64,000 bases of DNA from Pseudomonadota bacterium. GTDB lineage: Bacteria > Pseudomonadota > Gammaproteobacteria > Xanthomonadales > Rhodanobacteraceae. A program made the translations under genes and the position numbers. The notes under the pieces were generated by a model that was not told where the DNA came from, searched no databases, and saw only the letters and a list, made by a program, of their open reading frames with translations. This document shows, piece after piece, positions 8,385-53,392 of this stretch (positions within the stretch are counted from its first letter, which is position 1; every line of letters starts with the position of its first letter). The stretch lies in NCBI GenBank assembly GCA_023430685.1, contig JAEYZH010000024.1, positions 1,372 to 65,371 on the forward strand, read 5' to 3'.

Positions 8385-8750
8385 ATGCGAACGATTGCGC
8401 TTGCAGCCGCGATGGCGGCATCGATGCTGGTTTCCGGCAGCGCTGTTGCCGGAGGACTCATCGTCCACTGGCCCGGCGGCGAGGTGACGTCGTACACCGG
8501 CCACGTCGTCTACTACGATCCCGACCCGGGCGCGGACAACCTGTCCGGCGCGAGCTTCGTCGAGGATTCGGCCGCCGAGGTCTACGAGAGCGACGCGATC
8601 TTCGAGAGCCCCTTCGGGAGCGCCCCTACCGACTGGCGCTGGCGCGTCGTGAAAGAGGTCGGCGGTCATGCGACCGGCGCCGGTTACTGCGCGTCGTCCT
8701 TCGACGGGCAGCTGCTCGAGCTCACCTGTATCCCCTATCCGGATGACTAA
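8385..8750 (+). CDS. Small secreted protein (121 aa), unknown function
   Basis: AGGAGGGAGCA precedes the ATG at 8385. Signal peptide MRTIALAAAMAASMLVSGSAVAGG. The rest of track ORF 7836..8750 is an off-frame extension. Confidence 0.6.
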   Translation: MRTIALAAAMAASMLVSGSAVAGGLIVHWPGGEVTSYTGHVVYYDPDPGADNLSGASFVEDSAAEVYESDAIFESPFGSAPTDWRWRVVKEVGGHATGAGYCASSFDGQLLELTCIPYPDD

Positions 8751-8795: not shown

Positions 8796-9158
8796 GTGGC
8801 TATTCCGCGGCTCATAGCTCTCACCGGCAGGCTCGGAATTGCCTTGGCAACCGTCGTAGTTGTCGGAGCGCTGCTGACCATCTCGCTCCGAGGGTGCGTC
8901 GCCGATGTACGCCAAGCGTTCACCGACGACGAGGATGAGCCGGACGTGGTGGTGGACTACTGTGACAGCGATTGCGCAGCGGAGGCAGCTGGCGAACTCT
9001 TCATGAACCGCGAATACGAATCGGCCATGACCGAATGCCAACACCGGGGGCCGGCCTTCACACTTGGCTGCACCAACTTTGTTTCTGAGCTCGAGGAGCC
9101 AGAAGTCCTCGATCGGCCCACCGCTGACGAAGAAGACGCGAGGCCATATTGGCGCTGA
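8796..9158 (+). CDS. Hypothetical membrane-anchored acidic protein at the prophage edge
   Basis: GTG start and N-terminal hydrophobic segment LGIALATVVVVGALLTISL. The region is locally lower in GC than both flanks. Convergent with the giant virion gene. No motif recognised. Confidence 0.3.
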   Translation: MAIPRLIALTGRLGIALATVVVVGALLTISLRGCVADVRQAFTDDEDEPDVVVDYCDSDCAAEAAGELFMNREYESAMTECQHRGPAFTLGCTNFVSELEEPEVLDRPTADEEDARPYWR

Positions 9159-9181: not shown

Positions 9182-12100
9182 CTAATGAGTCGCCCGCGAA
9201 CGCGCATCCACGTCTGCTGCGAGTTCTGCACGCTCCGCGTATAGCGCTTCGAGTTCGATCCGCTTCTCGCGCGCGCTGAGCTCGCGGTCGTTCGCGACCG
9301 CCTTGATCCGCTGGTTGATCTTCTGCATGCGCTTGTTCGCGCCGGCGTAGATCGGCCGCTTCGCCAGGTCCGGATGGTCTGCCAGGTCTTCCTCGCGCGC
9401 GGTGTTTCCGGTCTTGCGAGCGTGGTTGTATGCCGCGTAGGTCTCTTCGACGTCGCCGAGGACATCATAGAAGCGCGCGACATACTTGTCCGAGTTCGCG
9501 TCGGCATTCTTCACGAAGTCGCCGGCGACGAAGACATTGTCGATCTTGGTGAGATCTCGGCGCGGGTTCGACGGCAATCCCATCGCATCTCGCAACATCA
9601 GGTCCGAGACGTTCATTGCCTGCATGCCGAGCCAGCCGAAGTAGCCCCGCACGATGTGGTCGACCTTCTTGGGTGAGACGTTCGCGACGCGACCGATCGC
9701 GACCGCGCCGGCCGTCGTGGTCGGGCCCACGCGATCCTGCGCCGGCAACCGCTCGTCGCCCATCGAATCGATCGGCGCCTGGCGGAAGGTGTCGTAGTTC
9801 GCCCATGCCTCGATCAACGGCTTCACGGCCTGCGGCACCGGGTTCATCGACAGCTGGTCGCCGAGGATGTTGGCCAGCGTGTGCGCGAAGTCCTTGGCGC
9901 GATAGTCGTCGCCGCCGACCGCCAGCTCCGTCATGCGCTCGACGACGGAGCCCATCGCCCCGACCTCGAACGGCTTCGGGATGAACAGCATCTTGTCGCC
10001 GAGCTTCACGCACCAGTAGGTGTCGCGCGCCCAGTCCGGCAGCGCCTTGTAGTCGTCGTCATCGCGCTGCAGCAGGTAGCTCAGTGCCGACGCGATTGCG
10101 ACGGCGCCGGCGACGGCAGCGAACCGTGCAGGGTTTGCGGCCGCGCCCTTGCCGAGCTTGTACGTGCCTTGGATGCGCGCATTGAGAAACGGCACGACGG
10201 CCGTCAGGAAGCGCACCGAGGCCCACTTCCCGCCCATCGTGAAGTCCATCAGGTCGCGTGCCTCGTAGCTCGCTTCGAGGTGCGTCGCGCCACGCGCGCG
10301 GGCACGCTCGTAGACCGCCGATCGGTTGATGGTTTCGGAGCGGTCGCCGACGTCGTTCCACCAGTCCCACGCCGCGCGTAGCGCGTTCTTCGCGCGTTCG
10401 GGCGTACCGAGGATCTGGGCGTCGTCGATGCCCATCTCGATCAACCGGTGCGCGTTCCGCGCCTGCTGGCCATCGTTGAGGCTGCCGAACCGAATCTTCC
10501 CGCCACCAGCGAGCATGCGCGCCGCGGTGGCGGACCCCTTCTTGGTCGCCTTCCAGCCGTTCATCATGTTGCGCAGCGGGTTGAACCCGGCGTCGTCCGA
10601 CACGGCGAGGACGGAAATGCTGTCGCGCAGGAGGTTGCGAATCCGGAAGCTGGGCGAGATCGTCACACCGGTCGTGAGCGCGTGCCGGAACCAGCGCATC
10701 GCATCCATCGCGCGGCCCTTGATGCCGCCGAAGTGCAGCGCCGTCAGCGCGTCCAGCACGAGCGGGTCGTCGACCAGGTAGTGCACCTGCTGCCCATGGT
10801 CCATGACCCAGACGCTGCCCTTCTCGGCCGAACCGATCTTCCGCGCGATACCCGTGTTCTCGGCGGCCGCGAGCGCCTTCGTCGCAGCCATGTTGCGCAT
10901 GCTGCTGGTCATCAGCATCGACCAGTTCGCCAGCGTGTTGGCGAGCAGATCCCGCAGTGGGTCCTTGCCGCCCTTCAGCGCCTTGAAGGCCTGCTGCTTC
11001 ACCAGCCCTCCGCCGACGCGCGCCGGCGAGAAGTCGGGGTTGTCCTCGGCAATGCGGTAGAACGGAACGTAGAACTCGTGCTCCCACGCTTTGCGTGACG
11101 ATGGGTCGATCAGTCCGGCTTCCTCCGCGATGTCGAGCACCGCCTTCTGGTATCGGCGGAATGCCGTGTGCGCCTTCAGGTACACCGTTCCACGGTCGCG
11201 GCCGTCGGCCATCGTCCCTTGGTTGAGAGATTTCAGTTCGGCGATTTGCTTGTCGGTGAAGTGCCGTTCGCGCCCCTCGCCCTTCAGGCGCTCGGCGCGA
11301 TTTCCGGCAACCCACGCGAGGAACAGGTCGTGCTCGCCCGCGAGGTCCGACAGGATCCCGCGCAGGCCTTGGCCATCGACGTCGACATCCAGCGCGCCGT
11401 CCGACAGCTTCGGTGTGCCATACAGAAACGCCGCCTCGAGCGCGCCGTCGGTGCCGCGCGACAGGCGCGCCTGCATGTATCCGGTGAAGTCGAGGTCCTT
11501 CAGCGGCGCGAACTGGTCGACAATGCCCTGCGTGATTCGCAGGCTTGCTCGATCCATGATCTCGCGGAAGCGGTCGCGGAGGTTCGTGATCCGCGGCGAG
11601 GCGCCAATGCTGCGCAGCGCGTCGACCTGCCCCTTCGAGAGGTGCGGCGCCGGCGCCGCGAAGCTGAAGGCCGTCGAGTTGTCGCCCGGGAGACGAACCT
11701 TGCCGTCGACCACGGCACGTCGGGCTTGACGCAGCACGTGGGCGAGATCGGCATCGGTGAGCTTCGCCAGCTTCGCGAATCCGTGCTCGCGCAACCATGC
11801 CTTGATCGCACCGATGTACTCGCGGATGCGCTGGCGAACCCCCGGCGGCCCGTTCTGCGCAAGATGCGCGGCGAGCTCGTCGAGCAGAATCGCGTTCTTC
11901 TGCGCCGCGGTCAGGTCCGCGCGCCCGAGCACGCCGCTTTCGTAGACCGAGAGGTCGATGCCATGCTTCTTGGCGTAGCGCCGAATGCCATCGATGCCGC
12001 CCATGCCCGTCGCGATTCGCTCGAGCGCTGCCGGCAGATCCTTCCCGAACACCAAGCGCATGCCCTGGTGGCCCCAGGACTCGTGGAAGATCGCTCGCTC

Positions 12101-15100
12101 GATGCCGAGCTCCGTGGCAAGATCGGGATGGCTTCGAACCAGCCAGAGACGGCCGTCATGCCACGCCGCGACTACATCGCTGCCATCCGAGCCCTGCTCG
12201 CGCGCCTCGGCTTGAAGCGCTTGCGGAAGCTCCCCGAAGGATTCGACCGCTTCAACACGCGGAGCGTTCTTCCACCCGGCGGTTGTCCGTTCGACGACCG
12301 CGTCGAGATCCACTTCGCTCGCCGTCGGGACTGATTCGGCGCGCGTCGAGCGCGACAGGAATGGCCGATCGGCGACGGTGCGCTGACCGCTGCCAGCAAC
12401 CGAGGTTGCCTTGTTCCCATCGAGGTGGATGACGTCCAGCGCGCGGATATCGCCGTCGCTCAGCAAGCGCGCGATGTTGCGGCCGGCCTCGACGTTGCGC
12501 GACACCACGATGGCTGCTGCAGCATTCGCTTCCGTCACCTGCCTCATCACATGGGCGGCGCCGGTGTCGATGTCGCCGGTGCGCAACTTGGCCATCTCCG
12601 CTTCATCAAGCGGTAGGAAGCCGACGGGCCGATGTCGGTTGTCGAGCAGCAGCACGCCAGATTCTTGGCGCTCTCGCGCGTAGCGCAGAGCATCCTGCGG
12701 GTCTGTGATCGCGGCGCGATCGTTCGGCGGCACGCGCCGCAGCGCACGCTCTTGGATTGGCACGTCTACATTGCGACGGCTGGCCGTCACGCCATCGACT
12801 ACCGTGCTCCCGTCTTCGGGGCGGAACAGCGACGCCCGTCGGTTGCCGGGCGCGACGACGATCATGCCGTGCGTCTCGATGCCAGAGCCATCCATCAGGT
12901 TGCGAAGAAGGCTCGTGATGGCTTTGTCGGCGGCGCTTTGCTCGATGACGCCCGAAGGGTGGTTGTGCGCGAACCACACGTGGCGAGCGCCAGGCACCTG
13001 CGCGACAGCGCCGAACACAGTGCCGGGGGCCACGGATGAGCCGTCGATGGTTCCGACGCTATGCCGAATGACCGCCAGAGGGCGGCTGCTCGCGTCGGCG
13101 ACGACGGCGAGCATTTGCTCCTGCGGCGACTTGCGCAGCGGCGCGATGATGTGCGCGACGTCCTGCCAGCCGGAGATGCGCTCGATCCCTGCCCGGAAGG
13201 ATCCGGTCGTTACTAGGCGGGCGTTTTGCGCAAGCGTCGCAGCTTTGCGGCGGAGAGGGATGGTGCCGACGGCGGGCGAGGCGAAGAGGTCGAGCTGACC
13301 AGATACCTCGCCTCGGGCTCCCCGTCGAGCTTGTGCACGCGTCGGATCGGCAACGCTTCCACGTTCCGACTCAGGCGATAGCGGGCGGGTTTCTCCATAG
13401 GTCGCGGCGTTCTCTCGAACTTCTCCGAGATCGATTACTTCTGGCTCTCGAACGGATTCACCAGCTTCGGCTCGCTCGTCTTGAGTTCGTTCCCGGCCAT
13501 CACTGCCAGGCCGATCAGCGCCCGGTCGAGCCTCTGCAGCAGGGCGTCCCCCTGCAGTGAAGAGCGATCCGCTCGTTCGGATTCGGTTGTCGTCTGCATT
13601 GATTCGCTCCACCTCGCCGATCGCGCGGCGAGTCACGTCCTCGGCGCTCGCCGGCGACCGACCAAACATATCACCGTTCTGCGCTGCCTGTTGCTCGGCA
13701 GCCACGGCGCGCGCCGCCTCGCGCAAGCCCGTCGCCATGCGCGAAACCGACCGCGCATTCGCGCCGAACATTCGTGCCCACTGGTCGCCGGAAGTGTCGC
13801 GCGCGATCAGGTCTCCCTGAGCGAGGAACGCTTCGATGCGCTGCCCGGACTCGCGTGCGGCACGGAGTACGTCGAAGGCAGCTGCGATGCGCGACGGATA
13901 GTCACCGAGCGACCCGGTGCGATCCACCTTCGCCCACTCTGGCGCCGCACGCACGAGCGCGCTGAGCACGTTGCGGGCATCGGGGTCCGCGTCCTCTGCC
14001 ATCGCGGCGATCATCCGGTCGCTGCCGTAGGCGCGCGCGAACACGGCCGCTCGGAGGCGGTCGAAGAACGTCTTGTTGGGCCGCCCCTCGCCATCGACCA
14101 GTTTCGCCGCTTCGTTGGCGCCGAGGTTCCGGAGGAACGCGCGATAGAACGGCGAGGCCGGGTTGGTCGACAGGTCACCGGCATCCGTTACCGGCAGTTC
14201 GTCGAGATCAGGGAGCGCTCGCGCATCCGTCCGCGCCTGCTCGGTCGGAGAGAGCCCGAGGTTCGTCGAGGCATTGGACTCGGCGCCCATGTCGCCGACG
14301 TTGTGCTCGGCGTCGTAGAGCCGGATCAGCACCGGGTTGCGCTTGCCGGCGATCGCTTCCGCGCTGACGCCGTGCAGCGCGGCGTCGTCGATCAGACCCT
14401 GCCGATACGACTCGGCCGTGCCACGCTTCCAGGCGCCCTGCAGGCCGGCCACGCGCCCATTGTTGAGCGCGCGCAGTCGAGCCTTCGCGTAATGGGCGTT
14501 CGCCGTGCCGTCCGCAGAGTGCGACGCCGCGACATCGTCGGCTTCGACCACGGCATACCGGACGGGAATGCGGCGACCGGTCGACGGCATCACGACGTGG
14601 TCCTCGCGTCCGAGGTCGGCTTCCGGCACGGCGCGCGCGGACTCGGCGGCCGAAACCATCGGTGCGCCGGAGTTCGGGTCGCGCGAAAACGACAGGCGCT
14701 GCGCATCCGGCGCGCCCGCGATGCCCTGCATCTGCGCCACGCTCGCGGCGCGGGACCGGTCGCGGTTCTGGAGCGTCAGTCCGCCGTCGGCTTCCGCTGC
14801 ACGCCCTGCAGCGCCCGGGTCTGCACCAGGCAATCCGCTGACATCTCCACCACCCGACCGCGCGGCGGCTCCGGCGTTGCTTCCGTCGCTTCCGGGCGCG
14901 GGACCACCTTGTCCGGTCCGCGCCAATGTGGTTGCTGCTCGATCATTGTTGGCTCCTTGCTGTGGTTGCTGTGCACGCCACGCCTCGAAATCGCGCCGCG
15001 CCTTGTTTCGCAGGATGACGCCACCGCCACGCTGCACGAGAACACCGCCGACGCCGGCCGCCCGAAGCGCCTTGCGCACGCGTGAAACGTCGCCTGGGAT

Positions 15101-17992
15101 GAATACCCCATCACCGTCGACACGCGCCTTGGCCAGCGTCTTTGCGTGCTCCCGTGGTACAATTGCGCCGGAGGTAGGACCAATGGAACTTGATCCGCGC
15201 AACGCCGATCCGCGCTCGCTTCCGCCGGGCACCGAATGGTTCGATGACTGGGACGCCGGCTTGATCGCGCTGCTCCCGCCAGGCACCTCGCCCCGCATGC
15301 TGGCCTTCGAAGACGGTACGTCCCGTGCGATCTTCCGCGACTCGCCGCTCGGCAAGGCTGTCGGCTCCACTCGCGAACTGACGTCGCCGGTGGAAATAGA
15401 GCGCGCCATCGTTGAAGCAGGCTTCCCTGCGACAACGTCGGCCCAAGCTGCGGCGTAGATCTCCCGCATCCGGGCTACCAACTCGGCGTTTTTTGCCTGT
15501 TCCGCCGGCGTCAGCGCGCGGTCCTCTCGCGCAGCCTTTGCGCGGATTGCGCGCTGTTCCTCGTAGAGCTTGTGCCCCGCGTCCTTCGCGCGAAGCATCT
15601 CCGGCGTGTTGATCTGCAGTTCGACCGTGTGCCCGTCGACCCTGACGTTCATATTCACGTCGCGGTAACCGCCATCGATCCCGTCCACAGACGGGTCAAG
15701 CGTGTTGCGGAACTTCGTCGGCTTCCCGAACCGGCGCTCGACAGCCGCAATCACGGCCGGCACCTGGTCGAGGCGATCGACGACGAGCGTGCCGCGAACC
15801 AGATCCTTCAACTTCGTCGGGTCATAGGTGCCGTCCTCGATGTTCCGGTAATCGGACAGCGTTTTCTCGCCGGCACGCTTCACACCCTTCAGCGGCGCGA
15901 GCATCGGCCGCTTGGAGAGGCCGAGTTCGCGAGCGATTCCCGCAACGCCACGTTCGAACGCTGGGCGCGCGGCTTCCGCGCTCTCGTAGTGCGCGCGCAG
16001 ACCGCTGCGCGTGGCGTCGTCCAGATCGGCATGCGCGTCGAGCTCGGCACCCCAGTCAGCGCGCGGCGCTTCCTTCTTCGTGTTGCCGCTCGACAGCCAT
16101 TCGCGGAACTGCCGCATGTCGCCGAACCGGCTCACCGATCCGAGGCCCTGCCATCCTTCCTCGTAGTTCGCGGCGTACCCCTCGCGCGCGTCCGTCTCGG
16201 TCGGGAAGCCGATCATGACCTTGTGCTCGTCGAACTTTCCGGTCTTGGGATCGACCTGGTTCACTACGAACACGGGGAGGTCGGCGACGTCGTCGGCGTT
16301 CGCCTCGGGGCCGAGGAACGTGTCGACGTGATCCTTGTCCTTCCCGACGGTGCCGCGGATGTATCCGTAGTGGTGCTGCAGTGGCTCCCATTCTTCGCGG
16401 CGGCGCGATCCAGCTGGGTTCTCGATGCTGATGTCGAGACCACCGATGCGCATGTGCCCCTTGCGATAGTTGCCCGCCTCTTTCTGCGCCGGCGTCGGCT
16501 CAGGGAGGTCGTTCTTCGGCGAGGTCGCCGCGGCGTGCGCGGCCGCTTCGAACTGCGACTCAGCGTCCTGGCCAGCCATCCACCACGGCGGCGCGTCGTC
16601 GTCGCGCTGCTGCGCGAGGTCTGGCTGTTCCTGCGAGTTCTCGCGGCGCGAAACCGCGCGCTCGACATCCGGCGTCAGGCCCAACTCGGCCTTGCGCTGC
16701 GCGTCCGCTTCCATTGCAGCGGTGAGGCCGAAGCGTTGCGACGGCGTAGTCGCTGCGCCGGACGGCGACACCTCGATGATTTGCGCAGGCAGCGCCAGCA
16801 CGGGAGGCTGCGCGGCTTGACCTGCATTCGGTTGCTGCTGGTCGTCCCAGACGACGCCGTCTTCTTCGCCAGCACGGTTGAGGATGTCGCGCACGCGATC
16901 GCGCGGCTCGACACCGCCATTGGATGCGCGCGGCGCGCGCGCGCGCTCGGGTGCGCCAGGCAGTGGCGCTTCCGGACGCGGGCCCAGCGCGGCTCCCATG
17001 CCGGCGCCGAGCAGCGCGGATACCGGCGCTTGGCGCGGATCGAACAGCGGTCGATCGAGCTTGTCCGGCAGGGCCTCATTGACCAGCCCGACCTGAGCCG
17101 AGTCGGCGACGACGTTCGAGCCAGCGCCCTGCAGCGCGCGCGCGATCGCAGACCCTGGCGCACTGATCGGCGCGGCGTTCACCAGCGCATTTGCGCCGAA
17201 CTCGGTCGCGGCAGCCGTCAGGGCATCGCCGGAGTCGCCGCCGGCGCGCAGAACGTCGATGCCTGTACGAGCACCCATCGCTGCGCCGGGTACGAGCGAG
17301 GCCTTCGCCGAATGCTCGAGCGCACTCGCCAAGCCGCTCCGCACTGCTTCACCAGCGGTCGCTGCACCACGCATTGCGGCCGGCGCGGCGCTTACGCCGC
17401 CGGTGAGATACATGGCGCCGATGTCGGGAATCATGCGCGTACCGGCGAACGCAAGCCGCTCGCCAAGGTCCGCGTCCTGTCGCGGCTGCAACGCGGTGTC
17501 CGCGTCGAACGCGCGGTCGACCATGTTGCGCATCCAGAAGTCGGTGGCTGCGCTGTCGCCGCGCACGAAGTCTGCGGCCGCGGCAACCGGCGCTCCGGCG
17601 AGCAGGTTCGCCGTGCCAGCCGTGCCGTGCATCCACGATCGAGGTCCCCGAACCACTGGGTTGTCGACGATGGCCTCGGCGACGGGGTTGTCGAACAGAT
17701 GGGCGAACGGATCCGCCCCTTCCATCATCGAACGCAGGCCCGGCGCGCGCGGCGCGGGCGACGACGCTTGGGTGCCGTCCACAGGCTGCGGAAGCGGCAC
17801 TTCACCCGAGGCCTGCGCCGCGGTGATCGCGGTCGACATGCCGCCGGCACGCACGTTCCCGAAGTCCGGAGCGGCATCGTCCCACTGGATCGCATCAGCG
17901 GAGATTGCTGGCGCGTCGTCCCACTGGATACCGCCCGCGGCTTGCGGCGCGTCGTCCCAGACGATGCTGTTCGGGTCAAACGGGTTGGGCAT
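9182..17992 (-). CDS. Giant (2,936 aa) polyvalent virion/ejection protein: pyrophosphatase-like + RelA/SpoT-like + ParB-like + RadC/JAB modules and a large C-terminal region
   Basis: One uninterrupted ORF starting at ATG 17992 after AAGGAAGG. Motifs: NYRKGH..IENPAGSRR..YGYIRGTVGKDKDHVDTFLG (aa ~505-640); DLVRGTLVV, GYRDVNMNV, VELQINTPEM, HKLYEE (aa ~655-830); ALNNGRVAGL (aa ~1075-1230); HNHPSG..SAADK (aa ~1590-1720). It is the last gene of the virion module. Confidence 0.9.
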   Translation of the reverse strand: MPNPFDPNSIVWDDAPQAAGGIQWDDAPAISADAIQWDDAAPDFGNVRAGGMSTAITAAQASGEVPLPQPVDGTQASSPAPRAPGLRSMMEGADPFAHLFDNPVAEAIVDNPVVRGPRSWMHGTAGTANLLAGAPVAAAADFVRGDSAATDFWMRNMVDRAFDADTALQPRQDADLGERLAFAGTRMIPDIGAMYLTGGVSAAPAAMRGAATAGEAVRSGLASALEHSAKASLVPGAAMGARTGIDVLRAGGDSGDALTAAATEFGANALVNAAPISAPGSAIARALQGAGSNVVADSAQVGLVNEALPDKLDRPLFDPRQAPVSALLGAGMGAALGPRPEAPLPGAPERARAPRASNGGVEPRDRVRDILNRAGEEDGVVWDDQQQPNAGQAAQPPVLALPAQIIEVSPSGAATTPSQRFGLTAAMEADAQRKAELGLTPDVERAVSRRENSQEQPDLAQQRDDDAPPWWMAGQDAESQFEAAAHAAATSPKNDLPEPTPAQKEAGNYRKGHMRIGGLDISIENPAGSRRREEWEPLQHHYGYIRGTVGKDKDHVDTFLGPEANADDVADLPVFVVNQVDPKTGKFDEHKVMIGFPTETDAREGYAANYEEGWQGLGSVSRFGDMRQFREWLSSGNTKKEAPRADWGAELDAHADLDDATRSGLRAHYESAEAARPAFERGVAGIARELGLSKRPMLAPLKGVKRAGEKTLSDYRNIEDGTYDPTKLKDLVRGTLVVDRLDQVPAVIAAVERRFGKPTKFRNTLDPSVDGIDGGYRDVNMNVRVDGHTVELQINTPEMLRAKDAGHKLYEEQRAIRAKAAREDRALTPAEQAKNAELVARMREIYAAAWADVVAGKPASTMARSISTGDVSSRVEPTALPSGESRKIARDVPSSKASMRGEVPGGSSAIKPASQSSNHSVPGGSERGSALRGSSSIGPTSGAIVPREHAKTLAKARVDGDGVFIPGDVSRVRKALRAAGVGGVLVQRGGGVILRNKARRDFEAWRAQQPQQGANNDRAATTLARTGQGGPAPGSDGSNAGAAARSGGGDVSGLPGADPGAAGRAAEADGGLTLQNRDRSRAASVAQMQGIAGAPDAQRLSFSRDPNSGAPMVSAAESARAVPEADLGREDHVVMPSTGRRIPVRYAVVEADDVAASHSADGTANAHYAKARLRALNNGRVAGLQGAWKRGTAESYRQGLIDDAALHGVSAEAIAGKRNPVLIRLYDAEHNVGDMGAESNASTNLGLSPTEQARTDARALPDLDELPVTDAGDLSTNPASPFYRAFLRNLGANEAAKLVDGEGRPNKTFFDRLRAAVFARAYGSDRMIAAMAEDADPDARNVLSALVRAAPEWAKVDRTGSLGDYPSRIAAAFDVLRAARESGQRIEAFLAQGDLIARDTSGDQWARMFGANARSVSRMATGLREAARAVAAEQQAAQNGDMFGRSPASAEDVTRRAIGEVERINADDNRIRTSGSLFTAGGRPAAEARPGADRPGSDGRERTQDERAEAGESVREPEVIDLGEVRENAATYGETRPLSPESERGSVADPTRAQARRGARGEVSGQLDLFASPAVGTIPLRRKAATLAQNARLVTTGSFRAGIERISGWQDVAHIIAPLRKSPQEQMLAVVADASSRPLAVIRHSVGTIDGSSVAPGTVFGAVAQVPGARHVWFAHNHPSGVIEQSAADKAITSLLRNLMDGSGIETHGMIVVAPGNRRASLFRPEDGSTVVDGVTASRRNVDVPIQERALRRVPPNDRAAITDPQDALRYARERQESGVLLLDNRHRPVGFLPLDEAEMAKLRTGDIDTGAAHVMRQVTEANAAAAIVVSRNVEAGRNIARLLSDGDIRALDVIHLDGNKATSVAGSGQRTVADRPFLSRSTRAESVPTASEVDLDAVVERTTAGWKNAPRVEAVESFGELPQALQAEAREQGSDGSDVVAAWHDGRLWLVRSHPDLATELGIERAIFHESWGHQGMRLVFGKDLPAALERIATGMGGIDGIRRYAKKHGIDLSVYESGVLGRADLTAAQKNAILLDELAAHLAQNGPPGVRQRIREYIGAIKAWLREHGFAKLAKLTDADLAHVLRQARRAVVDGKVRLPGDNSTAFSFAAPAPHLSKGQVDALRSIGASPRITNLRDRFREIMDRASLRITQGIVDQFAPLKDLDFTGYMQARLSRGTDGALEAAFLYGTPKLSDGALDVDVDGQGLRGILSDLAGEHDLFLAWVAGNRAERLKGEGRERHFTDKQIAELKSLNQGTMADGRDRGTVYLKAHTAFRRYQKAVLDIAEEAGLIDPSSRKAWEHEFYVPFYRIAEDNPDFSPARVGGGLVKQQAFKALKGGKDPLRDLLANTLANWSMLMTSSMRNMAATKALAAAENTGIARKIGSAEKGSVWVMDHGQQVHYLVDDPLVLDALTALHFGGIKGRAMDAMRWFRHALTTGVTISPSFRIRNLLRDSISVLAVSDDAGFNPLRNMMNGWKATKKGSATAARMLAGGGKIRFGSLNDGQQARNAHRLIEMGIDDAQILGTPERAKNALRAAWDWWNDVGDRSETINRSAVYERARARGATHLEASYEARDLMDFTMGGKWASVRFLTAVVPFLNARIQGTYKLGKGAAANPARFAAVAGAVAIASALSYLLQRDDDDYKALPDWARDTYWCVKLGDKMLFIPKPFEVGAMGSVVERMTELAVGGDDYRAKDFAHTLANILGDQLSMNPVPQAVKPLIEAWANYDTFRQAPIDSMGDERLPAQDRVGPTTTAGAVAIGRVANVSPKKVDHIVRGYFGWLGMQAMNVSDLMLRDAMGLPSNPRRDLTKIDNVFVAGDFVKNADANSDKYVARFYDVLGDVEETYAAYNHARKTGNTAREEDLADHPDLAKRPIYAGANKRMQKINQRIKAVANDRELSAREKRIELEALYAERAELAADVDARSRATH

Positions 17993-18009: not shown

Positions 18010-19245
18010 TTACTCGAGGGGCAGAATCGTTCCATCCTCGTACTGCGCGACGCGGCGCCCGTTCGCGGTTCCAGTGCGCACCACGCGACCGTGCGAGCCG
18101 CCAGGCGCTGGCGATGTGCCTGGCCGGGCACCACTGCGCTGTGGCTGCGCGGCGAAACGCGGTGGCGGCGCAGCTCCCTCATCGCCCCACTGCGGATCGA
18201 CGCGTCGTGGCGCCCACCAGCCCTCCGCTTCCGGATGCGCGCGGCGCATGTAGTGGGCCGTGACCTTCGCGGCATCGTCAGCGCGCGCGCCGTCCTTCAC
18301 CTGGTCGGCGTAGAACTTGGCGGCGATCTGCGCCGGGGTGCCCTCGCGCTCGCGGCCGGCCAGCGTTCCCTTTGCCGGCTGACCGGATTCGTCCATGATC
18401 GGCGCCGTGCGGCCGGTGGCGTAGTCGAACTGCTGCAGCGATCCATCGTCGCCGCGCACGAGCTCGGTGAAGTTCTTCGGGTTTTTCGCGCGCGCCGCGG
18501 CTTCTTCCTGCTGCGATCGGATGCCCTCGAAGGCAGCCTGCACGTAGATGCGCGGGTCGACCATCGTCGCCGCTGCGCGCAGCAACTGATCCTGATTCGC
18601 GAACTGGGTCACCTTGCCGCCGGCGCTCGTGATCGTGAACGAACCGTCTTCGTTCTGCGTGATTCCTGCGATGGGAGCGCCCCCGAAGGATCCGATCGTG
18701 CTGTTGTACGCTTCGGCCAGGCCGTTCCAATCGCCGGTCGCGCGGCCCTGCGCAAATCCCGCGCCGATCGCGTTCCGCGCCTTCGCAATGCCCATGTCGA
18801 GGCGCTTCTCGTCGATGCCCATGCGCTCGAGCTCGATGCGCATCGCATTGAGCGACATGCGCTGCCCGCTCTCGGCCATGCTCTGGCGCTTGGCCTGCTG
18901 GCCGAGATCGAACTCCGCATCCTCCTGCGCATACTTGGTCGGCAGGCGATCCAGTTCCATACGACCGCGCTCCGCCTGCATGCCGCGGATCGAGCGGTCG
19001 AGGCCGTACGTCTCGTCTTCGCGCTGCTCGAGGATAGGCCGACGTTTCAGCATGTGTGACCGATCCTCGAGCCCGTGCTCGAACACCGTCTCCACACGCT
19101 CGTCCGCGCGCGCCTCTCGCCCAGCCTGACGCTCGCGCTCCGCCCGCGCCTCCGCGTCCAGCGCGTTGCGGCGGTTGATTTCGTTCTGCTGGTCCCATCC
19201 ATCCATCAGGCCCTGCAGGATGCCGCCGGTCGCGAGGCCTGCCAT
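18010..19245 (-). CDS. Internal virion / ejection protein candidate (411 aa)
   Basis: Coiled-coil, charged protein positioned between another internal-protein candidate and the giant protein. The ATG at 19245 overlaps the upstream stop (TGATG), with GGAGG 6 nt upstream. Confidence 0.6.
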   Translation of the reverse strand: MAGLATGGILQGLMDGWDQQNEINRRNALDAEARAERERQAGREARADERVETVFEHGLEDRSHMLKRRPILEQREDETYGLDRSIRGMQAERGRMELDRLPTKYAQEDAEFDLGQQAKRQSMAESGQRMSLNAMRIELERMGIDEKRLDMGIAKARNAIGAGFAQGRATGDWNGLAEAYNSTIGSFGGAPIAGITQNEDGSFTITSAGGKVTQFANQDQLLRAAATMVDPRIYVQAAFEGIRSQQEEAAARAKNPKNFTELVRGDDGSLQQFDYATGRTAPIMDESGQPAKGTLAGREREGTPAQIAAKFYADQVKDGARADDAAKVTAHYMRRAHPEAEGWWAPRRVDPQWGDEGAAPPPRFAAQPQRSGARPGTSPAPGGSHGRVVRTGTANGRRVAQYEDGTILPLE

Positions 19246-19916
19246 CACACACCTCCGAACATGTTGTTGCCCGAGTACTCATTCACGAGCGAGCTGACGC
19301 CGCGGCCCATCATCTGGGCGCCGGCGGCCGCCGCTTGGGAATACTGGTCTGCCCTAGCGCCGTACATCGCCGCCTGCCCGCCGAATGCGCCGCCGAGCGC
19401 GCTGCTGCCGGCATTCATCGTGTTGAGCGCGTTCGCTTGCGCGCCGCTCGACAGGCTCGCAAAGCTGGCGAGCTTGTTAAACCGGGTGTCCTTGGCGGCC
19501 TTACGCGCCTGGTTGTTGCCGTTCACCTGCGCCATCGCGCGGCCGAGTCCATACTGGGTTTCGCTCGCGCTGAACGCACCGTCGGTCGGATTCACGCCGT
19601 AGCGCTCCATCGTCCGGCGATTGATGTCCTGCGCAGTGTCGAAGGACATGCCGACGTCTGCGGCGATCGCACCATAGTCGGGGCGCTCTTCTTCCATCGC
19701 GAGCTCGCGGAAACTGGTAAGCGCCGGCATGTAGAGCTGCTTCCAGTCCTCGTACTGCTCCTTGCCGAAGTCCAGCTGGTCCTGCGCAACCTGCGCCTGC
19801 GCATCCATCGACTGCTGCTGGCGCTTGGAGGCCTTGTCGGATGCCTTGCTTGCCTTGTTGGCGCTGTACGCGCCGGCTGCGACCGTCGCGACGGCCATCG
19901 CAGTTACTGCGGCCAT
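19245..19916 (-). CDS. Internal virion protein candidate (223 aa, Ala/Gly/Gln-rich)
   Basis: AAGGAG lies 8 nt upstream of the ATG at 19916. The N-terminus MAAVTAMAVATVAAGAYSA is hydrophobic, and composition is typical of podovirus internal core proteins. Confidence 0.55.
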   Translation of the reverse strand: MAAVTAMAVATVAAGAYSANKASKASDKASKRQQQSMDAQAQVAQDQLDFGKEQYEDWKQLYMPALTSFRELAMEEERPDYGAIAADVGMSFDTAQDINRRTMERYGVNPTDGAFSASETQYGLGRAMAQVNGNNQARKAAKDTRFNKLASFASLSSGAQANALNTMNAGSSALGGAFGGQAAMYGARADQYSQAAAAGAQMMGRGVSSLVNEYSGNNMFGGV

Positions 19917-20365
19917 TGCACCAGCTCCTTGGTGTAGCAGCTTTCGCTGAAGCGGTATCCCATCCGCTCGTAGAGGGCCGCCGCTTGGGGCGGGCTGTTC
20001 GACAGGTGCACCATCTGGATGGCCACGGCGCCAGCGGCGCGGCAGGCTGGCTCGACTGCCGAGAGCAGCGCGTGTCCCGCGCCGGACTTGCGCGCGTCAG
20101 GATCGACCCACCACACCACTTCGTGCGCAGTGCGCACCGCATGGTTGAACATGAATGGCGCGATGAACAGGCCGGCCATCCCGACCACGCGACCATCAAC
20201 CTCCGCGACCAGCATCGTGCCGGTCTCCATCATCGACCGCGTGAGCGCCGCGACTGCATCCTTCGACATCGACACGAATCTGGCATAGCTCGTGGTCGCG
20301 TAGAACGCACGCGACATCGCGACGATCGCTTCCAGATCCGCTTCGGTGGCGAGGCGGACGATCAC
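19904..20365 (-). CDS. GNAT-family N-acetyltransferase
   Basis: VIVRLATEADLEAIVAMS..., the acetyl-CoA-binding segment VWWVDPDARKSGAGHALLSAVE, and ALYERMGY. The GTG start at 20365 overlaps the upstream stop (GTGA). Confidence 0.8.
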   Translation of the reverse strand: MIVRLATEADLEAIVAMSRAFYATTSYARFVSMSKDAVAALTRSMMETGTMLVAEVDGRVVGMAGLFIAPFMFNHAVRTAHEVVWWVDPDARKSGAGHALLSAVEPACRAAGAVAIQMVHLSNSPPQAAALYERMGYRFSESCYTKELVQWPQ

Positions 20366-20637
20366 GACGCCGCAACCCCTAGAATGACGCCGAGCGCAAA
20401 CGGCGCCACGCAAGTACCGCGCTCGCTATTGGCCCGCTCGGCGGCCAACGCGCTGCGTTCCAATGCGGCAACTTCACGTCGACGCAGCAGAAGCAGTTCC
20501 CGGTCGCGACGCCACGCGGCCGCTTCATGCGGCGGCATGCCTGCCGTCACGGTAGCGACGAGCTGCTGTTCTCTCCTTGCCGCGTACTGCGCAACATCGA
20601 TCTGAGCCATCGCCGCGGCCGCTGCGATCACGAACAT
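20362..20637 (-). CDS. Small hypothetical protein (91 aa) with hydrophobic termini
   Basis: AAGGAG lies 5 nt upstream of the ATG at 20637. The long 5' extension in the ORF track is off-frame-like. Confidence 0.5.
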   Translation of the reverse strand: MFVIAAAAAMAQIDVAQYAARREQQLVATVTAGMPPHEAAAWRRDRELLLLRRREVAALERSALAAERANSERGTCVAPFALGVILGVAAS

Positions 20638-21197
20638 GGGACACTCCTTGGCGTGAAGAAGGCGACCGCCACCAGCCGGCCATTCTCCGGACAATTCCCG
20701 AATGCCGCGAAGGGATACCGGCTGTGGAACAGCGCGCTCTCGTAGATCGCGGCACGGTTGTAGCGCATGCGCGCGACGCCGCGGATCGACCAGGCGTCCG
20801 CGTTGTTCCAGTCGTGCCGCACCTGCTCGAACAGGTCCGCGTCGCCCGGATCGATCCGGTGCGCGCCGGTCGCGTGGTGGCGCCAAAATGCGGTGCCCCC
20901 GGGGCCGTCGCACAGGTAGAGCACAAGCGCATGCGTGCCCCAGCCGAGGTCCGAATGGATCGCAGCGTTCGGCATCTCGCCGTTGAAGTTCATGCGGTAG
21001 CCCATGCCGAGCATGTCGACGGGACCCATGATCGCCTCGATGCGCTCGCGCAGACCCGGCACGTCGACGAGGGAAACGCGCTTGTAGACCTCACCATCCG
21101 GGCCTGGCCAATCGATGAACTTCGAGCCGAGCGCGTGCGCCCGAACCGCGTCGGGGCTGGCGAGGAAACTGTCGTGGATAGTCAGGCCGTCGAGCAT
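20628..21197 (-). CDS. Cupin / 2OG-Fe(II)-oxygenase-like protein
   Basis: HxD...H facial-triad-like spacing: AAIHSDLGWGTHALVLYL ... RAAIYESALFHSR. 189 aa, embedded among tail and virion genes. Confidence 0.5.
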   Translation of the reverse strand: MLDGLTIHDSFLASPDAVRAHALGSKFIDWPGPDGEVYKRVSLVDVPGLRERIEAIMGPVDMLGMGYRMNFNGEMPNAAIHSDLGWGTHALVLYLCDGPGGTAFWRHHATGAHRIDPGDADLFEQVRHDWNNADAWSIRGVARMRYNRAAIYESALFHSRYPFAAFGNCPENGRLVAVAFFTPRSVPCS

Positions 21198-21259: not shown

Positions 21260-24200
21260 TTACGCGATATGCATCGCGATCACGTTCCAACCTTGCATGA
21301 TCGAAAACTGCGCCTCAGCCATCGTTTTCATGTTGAGCCGGACGTAGTACTGGCCCGGCGTCGGCTGGACGACGCCCATGATCGTGAATGGCCAAACTTC
21401 GGGGGCGAAGTCGTCCACGACCTGCTCCTGGATCAGGTAGCCGGAAGTGTCCTCGTAGCCTGCGGCGCCGCCGCTGCCCGTCAGCGTCGCCTTGAACATG
21501 TAGCCCTTGTGATCGTTGCCGCCGCTGGACTGGGTCGCCAGCGTTCCGGAAATGATGATGAGGATGCGCGGCGCGCCGCCGCTGCGAGTCGGCTTCACGT
21601 TGATGCGGCCGCCCGAGACGGCCACCTGCACAATGCTCGAGGCGCGCGGGTTTGCGCCGCCGAATCCGGACCATCCCGAGCCAGGTCCAGCGTCGCTGGC
21701 CAGCGAAGGCAGCATCAGGCCAGAGTCGCCAAGGAACAGGTCGGTGTTGAAGCCTGCGCGCGCCTGATCGTCGCGAACCCAGAAGGCGCCGTTCGCTTCC
21801 GACCTACCCTCGCCCGCCGTGCCGTAGTTCGCGCGAGGACCGATCCACATGGCGAATCGCTGGCCCGGCTGGCCGTCTCCACCGATCGAGGCGACATTGA
21901 TGCCATCAGTCGCGATCACCGCATCGTCGCCGACGGAGAGGTTGCCGCCGACAAACAGGTTGCCCAGCCGGTCGAGCTTGAACGCTTCCTGCCCGGTCGC
22001 TGGCTTCCAGTAGCGCAGCGGGTACTGGCTGGTCACTGGATTGTTCATCTCGATGATGAAGTTCGAGATGCTGTCGTAGCTGCTGGGGTCCAATGCGCCG
22101 GTGCCGGGTGTGCCGGCGATCAGGCGCTGTCCAATGACGACGTTCGCGTTCACCACCTCGGCCTGCAGTTGGTGGATGAATGCGGTCTGCGCCGTCAACA
22201 CGTCGAAGTCGGCCTCGGTCGCGCGCACGAGCCCGTCGACCACGAGCTTGCCGCGGATCCCGACAACACCGCGCGTCGTGTCGATGACGAACGGGATATT
22301 CGGCGCCGGCATCAAGGCGTTCTTGTAGACGTTGAGGTCGCTCGCGTTCGAGAACGATCCGTTGTCCGTGCGCTTCACGCGCACCGTCGACCCGCTGACG
22401 GATACGACTTCCACTTCGAGGCCCGCCAGGCCGATGCCAGCGAGCGGGTTCGGGCTCTGCCCCTGCGGGTTGCCGTCGGTGATCGCGAAGACGGCCGTGT
22501 TCGGATGCTCGGCGTCGTCGCTCGCGCGGATGCCATGGTTCGAAGTGCCGAGCGCTATGTTTGCCTCGACGCCGGTCCCGATGCGGGAAATGCTCTGGAT
22601 CACGCCACCGGCCATGCCGGTGCCCATCACTGCGAATTGATTCGCATTGATCAGGAAGGTGCTCAGCGTCTCGAATTCGCCCTCTTCGTTCTGCGAGGTT
22701 TCCAGTCCGAGCCCGAAGCCGGCCGCGTAGACCAGGCCGTCTGAGGTGATCTCGCGCATGCGCACGGACCACATTGCTTCCACTGCGCCATCCGCGTGCT
22801 GGGCGATCTCCATCGCTTGCTGCGCCTGTACCGTTGCTTCCCCGATCGACGTCTCGAGCGCGGCCACCTCGCGCGCGATGACGCTTCCAGGCTCCGCGCT
22901 GACGAAGACGTTGTGGAACACGCTGGCGATGAGGTCGATGAAGTCGTCCGGATCGTTCCCGCCACCAGCTCCCGCAGCGCCGATCGTCACGCCCGTGACG
23001 GCAACGCCCGCGCCAAACGGGACGGAGTTGCCCGGGATGTTCAAGATGACATTCGGCCCGCCGACGCTGAATACCGTTTGGTTGCCGGCGATGCTGCTGA
23101 GCGGACCAGATGGCGCGATCAGGTTGATCGTTTGACCGGCGGAAAAGTTGCTGCCGGCCGAAGGGTTGGCGAGTGTCAGCAGGATCTGAGATGGCAGTTC
23201 CGCAGCGCGCGTGTAGGAGAAGACGGCGAACTGCTCGCCGCCGCTGTTATCCGCCGCTGCCTGCGTGATGGCAGCCTGCCAGATGTTCACCTCTTCGAGG
23301 TTCGCCGCGTTCTCTTCGGCGATGCCCGTCACGTATCCGATCCGCTGGATCAACGTCTGGCTGCCGGGCGGCTGATCGCTCACGCCGATGATGCGGATGA
23401 GCTGCTGGTTGATCTGGCCGTGCAGTGCGTCATCCAGCGAAGCGATGTAGTTCGTGACGCCGCCCGCCTGCATGATCGGGTTGAACGCCGCGGTGTCGAA
23501 GAACTGACCCACCAGTTGCCGGTAGATCGACGTGTTCTGCACGTTCGTGATGAGCTGACCTAGCACCAGCGCAGGGTCGATCGAGAGTTGTCCGCTCGCG
23601 CCGAGTAGCGGCGCGTACGGACCAGGCACGCCCGCCGTCGACACAAACCGGACCCAGTACCAGTAGGTCGTCGGGTTGAGCGCATCGCCCAGCGGATCGG
23701 CCGTGGTGTCGAGCCTCACGAGGTCCGCATCGGTGAAGATCGTTCCGGCACCGGTGCCAGCAAAGTCGGGATGTACGTTGCCCGGCCCGATCGGCCGGTT
23801 CGGCTGAGGCATGGCGCCGAGGTTGAACGTCGGCGCAATCGGATTGCCGGCGCCATCCCTGCCCGCCTCAGGCTTGCGAAAGAGCTCCGCGTAGGCGTGG
23901 TTGTGATAGTCGGGCGGGTTCCACGTGACCATCAGTCCGCTTGGCGCGATGTGATGCACCGAAACGCCTGTTGGCGCTGGCGGCGGCGTGAAGTCGTCGT
24001 CGCCGAAATCCGGATCTCCCGGGTCGAAGATCGGACTGCCGGGATCATCGCCACCACCATCGCCTGGGCCGACCACCGCAGCTCCGCCGCGCCCGACGTT
24101 GACCTTCGCGATGCCGGCGTCGCCGAGTTCGCGAAGCGTGACGAAGCGATCGAGCGGATCACCGCGACGGCCGTAGCCGACCTCAACCGACTCCTTCAGA

Positions 24201-24286
24201 GCCTTGAGCGCCAAGTCGACCTCATTCTGGCTGCGACCGATCGCAGGGATCGCCGGCACCTTGGTCTTGCGCGGGGAGCTGGTCAC
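21260..24286 (-). CDS. Large tail fibre / host-specificity protein (1,008 aa)
   Basis: The N-terminal conserved region is followed by an FN3-like segment (PPAPTGVSVHHIAPSGLMVTWNPPDYHNHAYAELF) and a long beta-rich region. The GTG start overlaps the upstream stop (GTGA). Confidence 0.75.
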   Translation of the reverse strand: MTSSPRKTKVPAIPAIGRSQNEVDLALKALKESVEVGYGRRGDPLDRFVTLRELGDAGIAKVNVGRGGAAVVGPGDGGGDDPGSPIFDPGDPDFGDDDFTPPPAPTGVSVHHIAPSGLMVTWNPPDYHNHAYAELFRKPEAGRDGAGNPIAPTFNLGAMPQPNRPIGPGNVHPDFAGTGAGTIFTDADLVRLDTTADPLGDALNPTTYWYWVRFVSTAGVPGPYAPLLGASGQLSIDPALVLGQLITNVQNTSIYRQLVGQFFDTAAFNPIMQAGGVTNYIASLDDALHGQINQQLIRIIGVSDQPPGSQTLIQRIGYVTGIAEENAANLEEVNIWQAAITQAAADNSGGEQFAVFSYTRAAELPSQILLTLANPSAGSNFSAGQTINLIAPSGPLSSIAGNQTVFSVGGPNVILNIPGNSVPFGAGVAVTGVTIGAAGAGGGNDPDDFIDLIASVFHNVFVSAEPGSVIAREVAALETSIGEATVQAQQAMEIAQHADGAVEAMWSVRMREITSDGLVYAAGFGLGLETSQNEEGEFETLSTFLINANQFAVMGTGMAGGVIQSISRIGTGVEANIALGTSNHGIRASDDAEHPNTAVFAITDGNPQGQSPNPLAGIGLAGLEVEVVSVSGSTVRVKRTDNGSFSNASDLNVYKNALMPAPNIPFVIDTTRGVVGIRGKLVVDGLVRATEADFDVLTAQTAFIHQLQAEVVNANVVIGQRLIAGTPGTGALDPSSYDSISNFIIEMNNPVTSQYPLRYWKPATGQEAFKLDRLGNLFVGGNLSVGDDAVIATDGINVASIGGDGQPGQRFAMWIGPRANYGTAGEGRSEANGAFWVRDDQARAGFNTDLFLGDSGLMLPSLASDAGPGSGWSGFGGANPRASSIVQVAVSGGRINVKPTRSGGAPRILIIISGTLATQSSGGNDHKGYMFKATLTGSGGAAGYEDTSGYLIQEQVVDDFAPEVWPFTIMGVVQPTPGQYYVRLNMKTMAEAQFSIMQGWNVIAMHIA

Positions 24287-26271: not shown

Positions 26272-26449
26272 TGGCCTGCTCCTGGGCTTCAACCGGCTTC
26301 GGCAGCATGGCTCGCAGCGTGCGGTGCGCCAGATTGATCCGGTCGAGCAACGCCTCTTGCGACGCCGGTCGATCCTTCAGCGTGGACACGTACTCGATCG
26401 CGATGTTCGCGAGAATCTTGAGGGCCGTATCCGCATTCATCGTGGTCAC
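26252..26449 (-). CDS. Small hypothetical virion-module protein (65 aa)
   Basis: The ATG at 26449 overlaps the upstream stop. Helical protein MTTMNADTALKILANIAIEYVSTLKD... Confidence 0.5.
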   Translation of the reverse strand: MTTMNADTALKILANIAIEYVSTLKDRPASQEALLDRINLAHRTLRAMLPKPVEAQEQASDGHSD

Positions 26450-49058: not shown

Positions 49059-49297
49059 TGCACAACCTCGAACCCTGATCGGAACACGCCGTCGGTAGTC
49101 GTGTCGGTCCACTCCACCAGCATCGAGCCGCCGGAGTACTGCCAGCGAGTCAGCACGCCCGCCGACTCGAAGGGCCCCGGGTAGGCGTGCTGCACGATCA
49201 GCACCTGCGCGGTTTCACGTGGAGCGTCGGGCGCTGCTGCGAACAGCGCAGTGAGCGCGACAGCCGCCGCGGCGCGGATTGCCAGGTCACCCAACAT
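49055..49297 (-). CDS. Small secreted/periplasmic protein (80 aa)
   Basis: Signal-like MLGDLAIRAAAAVALTALFAAAPDAP. GGAGGA lies 7 nt upstream of the ATG at 49297. Confidence 0.5.
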   Translation of the reverse strand: MLGDLAIRAAAAVALTALFAAAPDAPRETAQVLIVQHAYPGPFESAGVLTRWQYSGGSMLVEWTDTTTDGVFRSGFEVVQ

Positions 49298-51990: not shown

Positions 51991-52168
51991 GGCGTGCCTC
52001 CTGGAATGCCACGAGGCAGTCGTCACAGAAGCGCGCGCGCGCCCCATTCGGCAGCACCGCGCACGGCTCGCCGCATTCGCAGATGGTCGGCACGGGTTTG
52101 CGCACGGCGAGTGCGCGCGCGAGATCCGCGGCGATGAAGTCGGCTGCGTTGTCGGCGATGTCAGCCAT
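51983..52168 (-). CDS. Small Cys-containing (zinc-ribbon-like) protein (61 aa)
   Basis: GGGAG lies 7 nt upstream of the ATG at 52168. Contains ICECGEPC...FCDDC. Confidence 0.5.
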   Translation of the reverse strand: MADIADNAADFIAADLARALAVRKPVPTICECGEPCAVLPNGARARFCDDCLVAFQEARRG

Positions 52169-53149: not shown

Positions 53150-53392
53150 TCAGGCCGCCCTCTTCCGGCGCACCTTCGGTGGCTTGGGCTCGCCCCAGAT
53201 GTCAGGACGGAGTTCTTCGCGCGAGACCGCGCGGCTGCTCTGCTCGTAGAGGCGCCGGACCAAGCCGCCATCGAGCTTGGGCTGGGTCGAGAGCGCCTTG
53301 CGCAGGTAGCCGATCGTGGTGCCGCAACGCTTCGCGTATGCAGCTTGGTCGTCTGGCGTCAGGGTGGACAGGTAGGCGCGCAGGGTTTCCAT
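53150..53392 (-). CDS. Cro-like HTH repressor (80 aa)
   Basis: METLRAYLSTLTPDDQAAYAKRCGTTIGYLRKALS is HTH-like. It is divergent from the CI-like gene across the operator cluster. The -10 hexamer ends 6 nt before the ATG. Confidence 0.75.
   Translation of the reverse strand: METLRAYLSTLTPDDQAAYAKRCGTTIGYLRKALSTQPKLDGGLVRRLYEQSSRAVSREELRPDIWGEPKPPKVRRKRAA

Follow-up and report, generated by a model that had tools for sequence, protein, structure and literature searches.

A giant prophage protein combining a pyrophosphatase-like InPase domain with a Tas1-like alarmone synthetase domain, and a Mesh1-like hydrolase as candidate antidote

The stretch of 64,000 nucleotides analyzed here (the window), taken from contig JAEYZH010000024.1 of a Rhodanobacteraceae assembly, carries on its minus strand a giant open reading frame (ORF; 9182-17992) encoding a protein of 2,936 amino acids (aa). 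This ORF shows no interruption, and its GC content at third codon positions (GC3 = 0.80) is a coding-type bias in a window with 67% GC. An identical protein is encoded by independent ENA metagenome contigs of 82-94 kb. A preliminary description, made without database searches, had pointed to the segment 15503-16480 (minus strand), i.e. aa 505-830 of this intact ORF, as a pyrophosphatase-like module followed about 20 residues later by a RelA/SpoT-like module with intact synthetase signatures. All the motifs quoted in its support lie in the same minus-strand frame: IENPAGSRR (aa 523-531), YGYIRGTVGKDKDHVDTFLG (aa 542-561) and DEHKVMIGF (aa 588-596), then LKGVKRAGEK (aa 701-710), DLVRGTLVV (aa 730-738), GYRDVNMNV (aa 775-783), VELQINTPEM (aa 790-799) and HKLYEE (aa 807-812). 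Both modules were recovered by our searches, as (i) an InPase domain with a family I pyrophosphatase-like OB fold (aa 502-633; 16094-16489) and (ii) a predicted pyrophosphokinase (alarmone synthetase) domain of the RelA/SpoT homologue (RSH) type, similar to Tas1/Apk1 (aa 656-856; 15425-16027). The InPase domain ends (aa 633) about 22 residues ahead of the first helix of the RSH fold (aa ~659), in agreement with the gap initially described. The RSH fold runs to about aa 856, some 25 residues further than the end initially given.

The remainder of the protein contains, in order along the same strand, a ddrB-like ParB domain (aa 1073-1225; 14318-14776; PF18763, E = 7.6e-16), a RadC-like JAB domain (aa 1607-1722; 12827-13174; PF04002, E = 3.2e-17) with an HNHPSG motif (aa 1676-1681), a HESWGH (HExxH) motif (aa 1970-1975; 12068-12085) that by itself suggests a possible zincin-type processing peptidase, and a conserved C-terminal module (aa 2150-2927; 9212-11545; phrog_18222, E = 2e-202) including an LPD38 domain identified by Pfam (aa 2645-2816; E = 5.5e-38). 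The region surrounding the HExxH motif (aa 1880-2150) recurs in five relatives. The C-terminal module has no usable match in the PDB; by tblastn, its ~780 aa recur in cultured phages of Achromobacter, Aeromonas, Vibrio, Escherichia and Pelagibacter, within large proteins that are mostly unannotated or variously named, one being annotated as "putative virion structural protein". InPase, RSH, ddrB-ParB, RadC and LPD38 are thus combined in one ORF encoded after the terminase, portal, capsid and tail genes, which characterizes the product as a phage-type polyvalent protein. The possibility that this ORF encodes a tape measure protein or a tail fibre was rejected, its Pfam and PHROGs matches being effector domains and polyvalent-protein families. 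At its N-terminus, three close [IV]-x-W-D-D-A-P repeats (IVWDDAP, IQWDDAP and IQWDDAAP; aa 12-39; 17876-17959) are followed much further by a fourth WDD (aa 382-384; 16841-16849), and the long relatives begin with similar short repeats of consensus P-F-D. The WDD repeats could be a signal for packaging or for docking to the portal.

According to its profile match, the first domain is correctly labelled as pyrophosphatase-like and belongs to the phage-specific InPase family described by Iyer et al. in 2017 (PMC5512222): PF18823 matches aa 502-633 with an E-value of 3.6e-44 (150.3 bits compared to a cut-off of 26.8). The acidic residues of this family are kept (the E of IENP, D553-x-D555-x-x-D558 and D588-E-H-K), and the Y of YGYI is also present. 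The YGYI...DxDxxD core aligns with residues 54-75 of the Escherichia coli pyrophosphatase (PPase). In sequence, IENP and YGYI are separated by about 17 residues compared to about 35 in the E. coli enzyme; this spacing bears on the beta-hairpin that cellular family I pyrophosphatases have between their first two strands and that the InPase family lacks. A model of the two domains gave a weak fold match to the family I PPase of Legionella (6n1c; E = 4.7e-3). Among PDB sequences, the domain has a single relative, formed by the last 125 residues of gp19, the portal protein of Pseudomonas phage Pa193 (9B41; E = 4e-28); the cryo-EM map, in which residues 94-528 could be modelled, does not resolve this part (PMC11456595). 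InPase domains were detected in 544 phage records, mostly of Pseudomonas phages, and also on the portals of Pbunavirus. In these portals (Pa193 gp19, BcepF1 gp124) the domain keeps the YG[YF]I..DxDxVD and FDEHK motifs; unlike in the giant protein, it is a C-terminal appendage without any adjoining synthetase.

Several lines of evidence place aa 656-856 firmly as a divergent RSH synthetase domain. Among PDB sequences, phmmer retrieved Tas1/Apk1 (6OX6; E = 2e-9; aa 664-805), the type VI (p)ppApp synthetase effector of Pseudomonas aeruginosa, which is the best sequence match among solved structures (~30% identity over 142 residues), and SaEAS (8VX3; E = 0.039); identities to characterized enzymes are 20-30% overall. 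A profile built from 36 relatives matched SaEAS (2e-7), E. coli RelA (3.5e-3), RelP and RelSeq, whereas its score for Tas1 is obtained by construction, a Tas1 fragment being included in the alignment. Furthermore, the AlphaFold2 model of the domain, built on 17 sequences, reached a predicted local distance difference test score (pLDDT) of 92. It has a SYNTH-type fold, with a central antiparallel sheet and flanking helices as in Pol-beta-like nucleotidyltransferases, and Foldseek found 61 PDB matches at E ≤ 1e-3, the 50 listed being all RSH synthetases, with SaEAS as the best one (template-modelling (TM) score 0.69; E = 6e-8). According to the preliminary description, a profile search unable to place aa 655-830 in the RelA/SpoT family would speak against the synthetase. 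PF04607 does fail on this sequence alone, but this failure is overridden by the Tas1 match, the family profile, the fold search and 14 of the 36 relatives, which match PF04607 on their own (E ≤ 0.01). The only NCBIfam match of the segment is to the C-terminal ~120 positions of PRK09169, a "hypothetical protein" model of 2,319 positions (E = 1.3e-6), which corresponds to type III effectors of the XopAD/RipS type. Rel-like C-terminal domains of XopAD-type effectors have been mentioned (PMC12691689). Both these effectors and the exported alarmone synthetases, to which SaEAS belongs, are secreted by bacteria and carry signal peptides or domains of secretion systems (PMC12691689), unlike the protein studied here.

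The domain looks catalytically competent because its core catalytic residues are invariant and the ATP-site residues of Tas1 align with it. K702, R706 and K710 (the basic residues of syn1), D730 and R733 (syn2) and E791 and Q793 (syn4) are conserved in all 36 relatives including Tas1, at identities of 31-53%, and R330, K353, N370, E382 and Q384, named as ATP-site residues of Tas1 (PMC12691689), align with R733, K757, N780, E791 and Q793 (positions in the Tas1 PDB chain are shifted by 21, which is consistent with the residue type at all five sites). These conserved positions bear out the claim that the signature motifs are intact. The idea that the domain is a degenerate, non-catalytic remnant acting as a structural spacer, suggested by the failure of the Pfam model and by the low identity to characterized enzymes, is very improbable given this invariance among distant relatives and a model that is both confident and complete.

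The nature of the product is less easily deduced. Syn2 (D-L-V-R-G-T) and syn4 (E-L-Q-I-N-T) are of the Apk type and depart from the Rel one (DxxGxR and EIQIRT), Apk synthetases being marked by RxT in syn2, GxN in syn3 and a syn4 that is not I-R (PMC12226406). Tas1 has the same types of syn2 (DLxRxT) and syn4 (ExQ[VI]N), the Q-I-N of the giant protein resembling its QVN, and the R, K, N, E and Q of the ATP site in common with it. In syn3, D-V-N replaces G-x-N, with an Asn that is variable among the relatives; SaEAS forms both products although it has GxN (PMC12691689). Because the homologues of Apk1 differ in what they make, sequence alone does not tell the product; (p)ppApp is favored, but such data are unable to settle the point.

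The real extent of this synthetase family was revealed only by an exhaustive HMMER search of 1.84 billion cluster representatives, which found 1,650 relatives at E ≤ 1e-3, of which 626 also reach E ≤ 1e-10, a result that, like the Tas1 match, lies well outside what chance would give; word-indexed protein searches had given only one and then 16 short relatives. Domain partners were counted on 150 listed representatives of these 1,650 (the present protein and 149 others). Among the latter, 66 have at least 1,000 aa and 27 at least 2,000 aa; ddrB-ParB accompanies the RSH domain in 37, and ADP-ribosyltransferase and tail lysozyme domains are also found as partners. The RSH domain also has relatives on 44 viral contigs of IMG/VR. 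A search of genome contigs with a narrower alignment recovered only three loci of metagenome-assembled genomes (MAGs), one of them in a Rhodanobacteraceae MAG, and no relative was found when the single protein was used as query. The giant gene had no megablast match in 50,697 phage records, and among cultured phages a relative of the domain was detected in Bordetella phage PHB04 only. Overall, this RSH family resides mostly inside big multi-domain phage proteins and is nearly absent from cultured phages. Five representatives (P0056, P0067, P0075, P0079 and P0120) have two separate RSH matches in one polypeptide, one of the two being partial in P0120 and P0079. The RadC-like JAB domain also occurs in seven of the 149 relatives; Iyer et al. 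list RadC for the polyvalent proteins of conjugative elements alone (PMC5512222), and not for phage proteins such as this one.

The giant gene belongs to a prophage. All on the minus strand and upstream of it are found the genes for the large terminase TerL (38302-39750), the portal (34707-36758), the major capsid protein (32379-33323), an internal virion protein (24283-26292), a tail fibre or tip protein (21260-24286) and a DNA-ejection-like protein (19245-19916). Downstream lie cellular genes encoding a low-molecular-weight phosphatase, a thioredoxin-like protein, UvrC, PgsA, tRNA-Gly, tRNA-Cys and tRNA-Leu, and this UvrC clusters at 90% identity with that of a Dokdonella MAG. Since virion genes precede the giant gene and cellular genes follow it, the window contains one end of a prophage in a Rhodanobacteraceae-like host, with the giant gene as the last late gene.

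The same prophage encodes a Mesh1-like small alarmone hydrolase (SAH; 54620-55150, minus strand) of 176 aa, counted from Met54 of an ORF extending to 55309. It matches Pfam HD_4 (E = 1.5e-18), human MESH1/HDDC3 (3nr1; E = 4.5e-57 over 164 residues) and phrog_990, and the residues of its His...HD...D metal site (H16, H32, H58-D59 and D119) are invariant among its phage relatives. The cassette looks moron-like because it is opposed to both flanking operons, has a GC content of 60.5% compared to ~67% elsewhere, and lies directly behind a strong terminator-like element, a GC-rich hairpin of nine pairs (seven G-C) followed by a T-run (55314-55335), located between a DUF4760 gene and the hydrolase gene. 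On one side it is flanked by a CI-like ORF and a Cro-like gene, and on the other by a recombination operon starting at about 56354 (plus strand) and including YqaJ, exonuclease and DUF2303 genes. The Cro-like gene (53150-53392, minus strand; phrog_35) is divergent from the CI-like helix-turn-helix ORF (53391-53966, plus strand), an arrangement with the look of a lysogeny switch; a promoter-like site is present at this gene pair (53426-53399, minus strand), and a second, near-consensus one (10/12; 56336-56363, plus strand) precedes the recombination operon.

This hydrolase is a reasonable candidate for an antidote, because PHB04 and the viral loci L020-L024 also have an SAH gene at 1-2 kb from their RSH gene, and because immunity in the characterized Apk2 systems is conferred by Aph1, an HD hydrolase (PMC10083569). 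It is 49-50% identical to gp032 of PHB04, encoded two genes past the RSH gene of that phage. In PHB04 (vB_BbrM_PHB04; locus L048, 7083-9348), gp034-gp032 follow a portal gene and correspond to a 493-aa protein with a C-terminal RSH domain, a 69-aa ORF and the HD hydrolase; this system has not been annotated as such, the first two products being recorded only as hypothetical proteins. Its layout looks Apk2-like, and its synthetase is 33% identical to the domain of the giant protein.

Apk2 proteins are toxins of temperate phages in which a (p)ppApp synthetase is fused to MuF, IapK/Tis1 and Aph1 providing immunity (PMC10083569, PMC12226406). As in these systems, the Tas1-like synthetase of the window has a carrier presumably associated with the phage head, and the phage also encodes a hydrolase of HD type. 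Unlike in Apk2, neither Pfam nor PHROGs detected a MuF (SPP1 gp7) domain in the giant ORF, the synthetase is internal (aa 656-856) instead of C-terminal, no iapK/aph1 pair lies downstream of the gene, and the hydrolase is located at a distance and is much closer to Mesh1 than to Aph1 (E = 2.7e-5 for the latter). Tas1/Apk1 itself differs from the present protein by its delivery and immunity: no PAAR or Rhs delivery domain was found by Pfam in the giant ORF, no Tis1 immunity gene is adjacent to it, and its synthetase domain is inside a phage protein.

From these data, we consider with a probability of roughly 55% that the giant gene encodes a phage polyvalent protein whose InPase and Tas1-like synthetase domains are delivered by the virion, the hydrolase of the prophage serving as antidote. 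The protein would be packaged in the capsid and ejected with the DNA. Its RSH domain would then move the beta,gamma-pyrophosphate from host ATP onto the 3'-OH of an adenine, or possibly guanine, nucleotide, and the resulting (p)ppApp or (p)ppGpp, together with the drain on ATP, would bring the metabolism of the host and any competing elements to a halt upon entry. Separate units may be released from the polyvalent protein through cleavage by the HExxH region; in phage-type polyvalent proteins, zincin-like metallopeptidases for self-processing are frequent but not obligatory (PMC5512222). The Mesh1-like hydrolase, encoded by a separately terminated cassette beside the lysogeny switch, would be the likely antidote, which protects the lysogen or the producing cell or ends the pulse. 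The fusion of an InPase domain to the capsid-interior end of the Pa193 portal is consistent with a link to the virion.

Several observations weigh against this reading. Delivery by the virion is untested even for Apk2 (PMC10083569). The HExxH region has no match in Pfam or in the PDB. PF04607 (RelA_SpoT) scores the synthetase domain at only 12.8 bits (E = 0.14), below its cut-off of 27. K757 and N780 vary across the family, making its acceptor pocket unlike that of Tas1, and the group of Apk1 homologues includes enzymes that make (p)ppGpp alone or both products (PMC12691689). Moreover, no Tis1/IapK-like gene adjoins the giant gene. The link between synthetase and hydrolase is circumstantial, because the hydrolase gene is 37 kb away and viral contigs commonly encode HD hydrolases of this kind (at least 466 confirmed loci). 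By contig names, a single contig (3300020711_000090) is common to both among the matches listed.

A more elaborate version, which we put forward only tentatively, is that of a self-limiting pulse: the virion-borne Tas1-like synthetase would poison ATP and nucleotide pools at entry, and the hydrolase of the moron-like cassette would subsequently end the pulse in cells under the control of the phage and immunize lysogens. If so, lysogens would be immune to the same weapon when used by sibling phages or by type VI secretion attackers, this would be the first virion-delivered alarmone synthetase with a spatially unlinked enzymatic antidote, and a metagenomic family of ~1,650 clusters would be tied to phage entry biology.

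The preliminary description had also suggested a functional link between the two modules, in which the pyrophosphatase-like domain could process the product or substrate of the synthetase. As such a two-enzyme cassette, the InPase domain might trim the 5' phosphates of pppApp, or might destroy the pyrophosphate (PPi) freed when host hydrolases degrade the alarmone, making the loss of ATP irreversible. An adjacent pair was indeed found in three of the 149 other representatives, always with InPase immediately N-terminal of the RSH domain, and together with that of the present protein these pairs are distributed over three distinct RSH subclades (this protein; P0048 and P0050; P0085). One of them, P0085, is a protein of 422 aa that consists of these two domains alone (InPase, E = 6.9e-40; RelA_SpoT, E = 7.6e-6, 26.6 bits). 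Such a recurrence of the same order and close adjacency speaks for a cassette, which we nevertheless regard as unlikely: the adjacent pair is present in only 4 of the 150 listed representatives, most relatives lacking InPase; in the viral loci L044 and L046, InPase is located 370-800 residues from the RSH domain, on either side; and InPase is widespread without RSH, as in Pbunavirus portals and the 544 phage records mentioned above. In addition, the RSH reaction releases AMP and not PPi. The two-domain model (pLDDT 76; predicted TM score (pTM) 0.58), with its low-confidence, disordered linker, gave no sign of a fixed interface, but being built from only four sequences it is too weak to judge one. 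Because the pair is rare, the domains are elsewhere apart in either order, InPase is common without RSH and the reaction yields AMP, the fusion probably results from modular shuffling and does not reflect a coupled pathway. The suggested link is thus not supported, and the InPase domain most likely works independently of the synthetase, as another module of one toolkit rather than as its partner.

Whether the protein is ejected at all can also be questioned. The synthetase could act in the producing cell or the lysogen, in superinfection exclusion or abortive infection, or be an interbacterial toxin released by lysis. The element is a prophage, a role in favor of the lysogen has been proposed for toxSAS and MuF toxins encoded by prophages (PMC10083569), and a hydrolase in a moron-like position fits the logic of toxin and immunity. 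However, the domain is buried in a protein of 2,936 aa encoded in the late structural block, and no recognizable secretion domain is present in the ORF, which makes a role restricted to the producing cell, or to its lysis, unlikely compared with delivery by the virion.

The same domain could, by its fold, be a tRNA-modifying (tRNA-pyrophosphorylating) enzyme similar to FaRel2 or CapRel, since the RSH fold and the catalytic residues are common to both enzyme classes and the variable K757 and N780 are located on the acceptor side. A Mesh1-type hydrolase could also reverse tRNA pyrophosphorylation. However, the closest relatives of the domain, Tas1 in sequence and SaEAS in structure, are nucleotide pyrophosphokinases. 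FaRel2 appears only at rank 48 of the 50 fold matches listed (query-based TM score, TMq, 0.17) and is a far weaker match of the two-domain model than SaEAS (E = 3.9e-3 versus 8e-7), and no CapRel structure is among the 50 listed matches of either fold search. We therefore hold a tRNA substrate to be quite improbable and retain the nucleotide pyrophosphokinase delivered by the virion as the preferred interpretation.

The unusual character of a phage-borne synthetase joined to a pyrophosphatase, as first presented, was overstated. MuF-fused Apk2 has been characterized (PMC10083569, PMC12226406), and Iyer, Burroughs, Anand, de Souza and Aravind reported that polyvalent proteins of phages contain RelA/SpoT and InPase domains, for which they put forward the same offensive role (PMC5512222). 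The proteins in question are, like the present one, giant, multi-domain and encoded among virion genes, with an injected enzyme proposed to cause an alarmone-like shutdown, whereas their RelA/SpoT domains were traced to prophages of Spirochaetes and Epsilonproteobacteria (PMC5512222); the domain of the window belongs to a Tas1-like clade, in a gammaproteobacterial prophage, and is not detected by Pfam RelA_SpoT. A phage weapon of this sort was thus already predicted in 2017, and the novelty here is the Mesh1-like hydrolase in the same prophage. The locus is set apart by its Tas1-like, Pfam-invisible proteobacterial clade, an internal position in a 2,936-aa carrier without MuF, a RadC domain, a distant Mesh1-type hydrolase and the fact that no immunity pair adjoins the gene. 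It should also be emphasized that a large and mostly unannotated Tas1-like clade in giant phage proteins escapes the Pfam model, so that routine annotation misses it. The injection of alarmone synthetases by phages is an open experimental question (PMC10083569), and the hydrolase of the same phage provides a concrete toxin-antidote pair to test. The practical value of this element is limited because it is known from metagenome contigs only; the cultured Bordetella phage PHB04 is a possible experimental stand-in.

Other genes of the window deserve mention. Between the giant gene and the host genes, two small plus-strand ORFs (8385-8750 and 8844-9158), the first with a signal-peptide-like N-terminus and the second very acidic, have no significant Pfam match and likely mark the end of the prophage. 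Two genes upstream of the giant gene, encoding proteins of 412 and 223 aa, also lack any significant Pfam match. All four were considered as immunity genes and rejected, as they are not conserved beside other RSH loci. Genes for a GNAT acetyltransferase and a DUF6445 protein (19904-20365 and 20628-21197, minus strand) are inserted between the tail genes and the giant gene, an unusual place for them. Finally, the early region contains two large genes of DNA methyltransferase type (47436-49112 and 50224-52689, minus strand), which encode a 558-aa protein with DUF4942 and MTS-like domains and an 821-aa C5-cytosine methylase fusion, and which probably ensure self-methylation against restriction.

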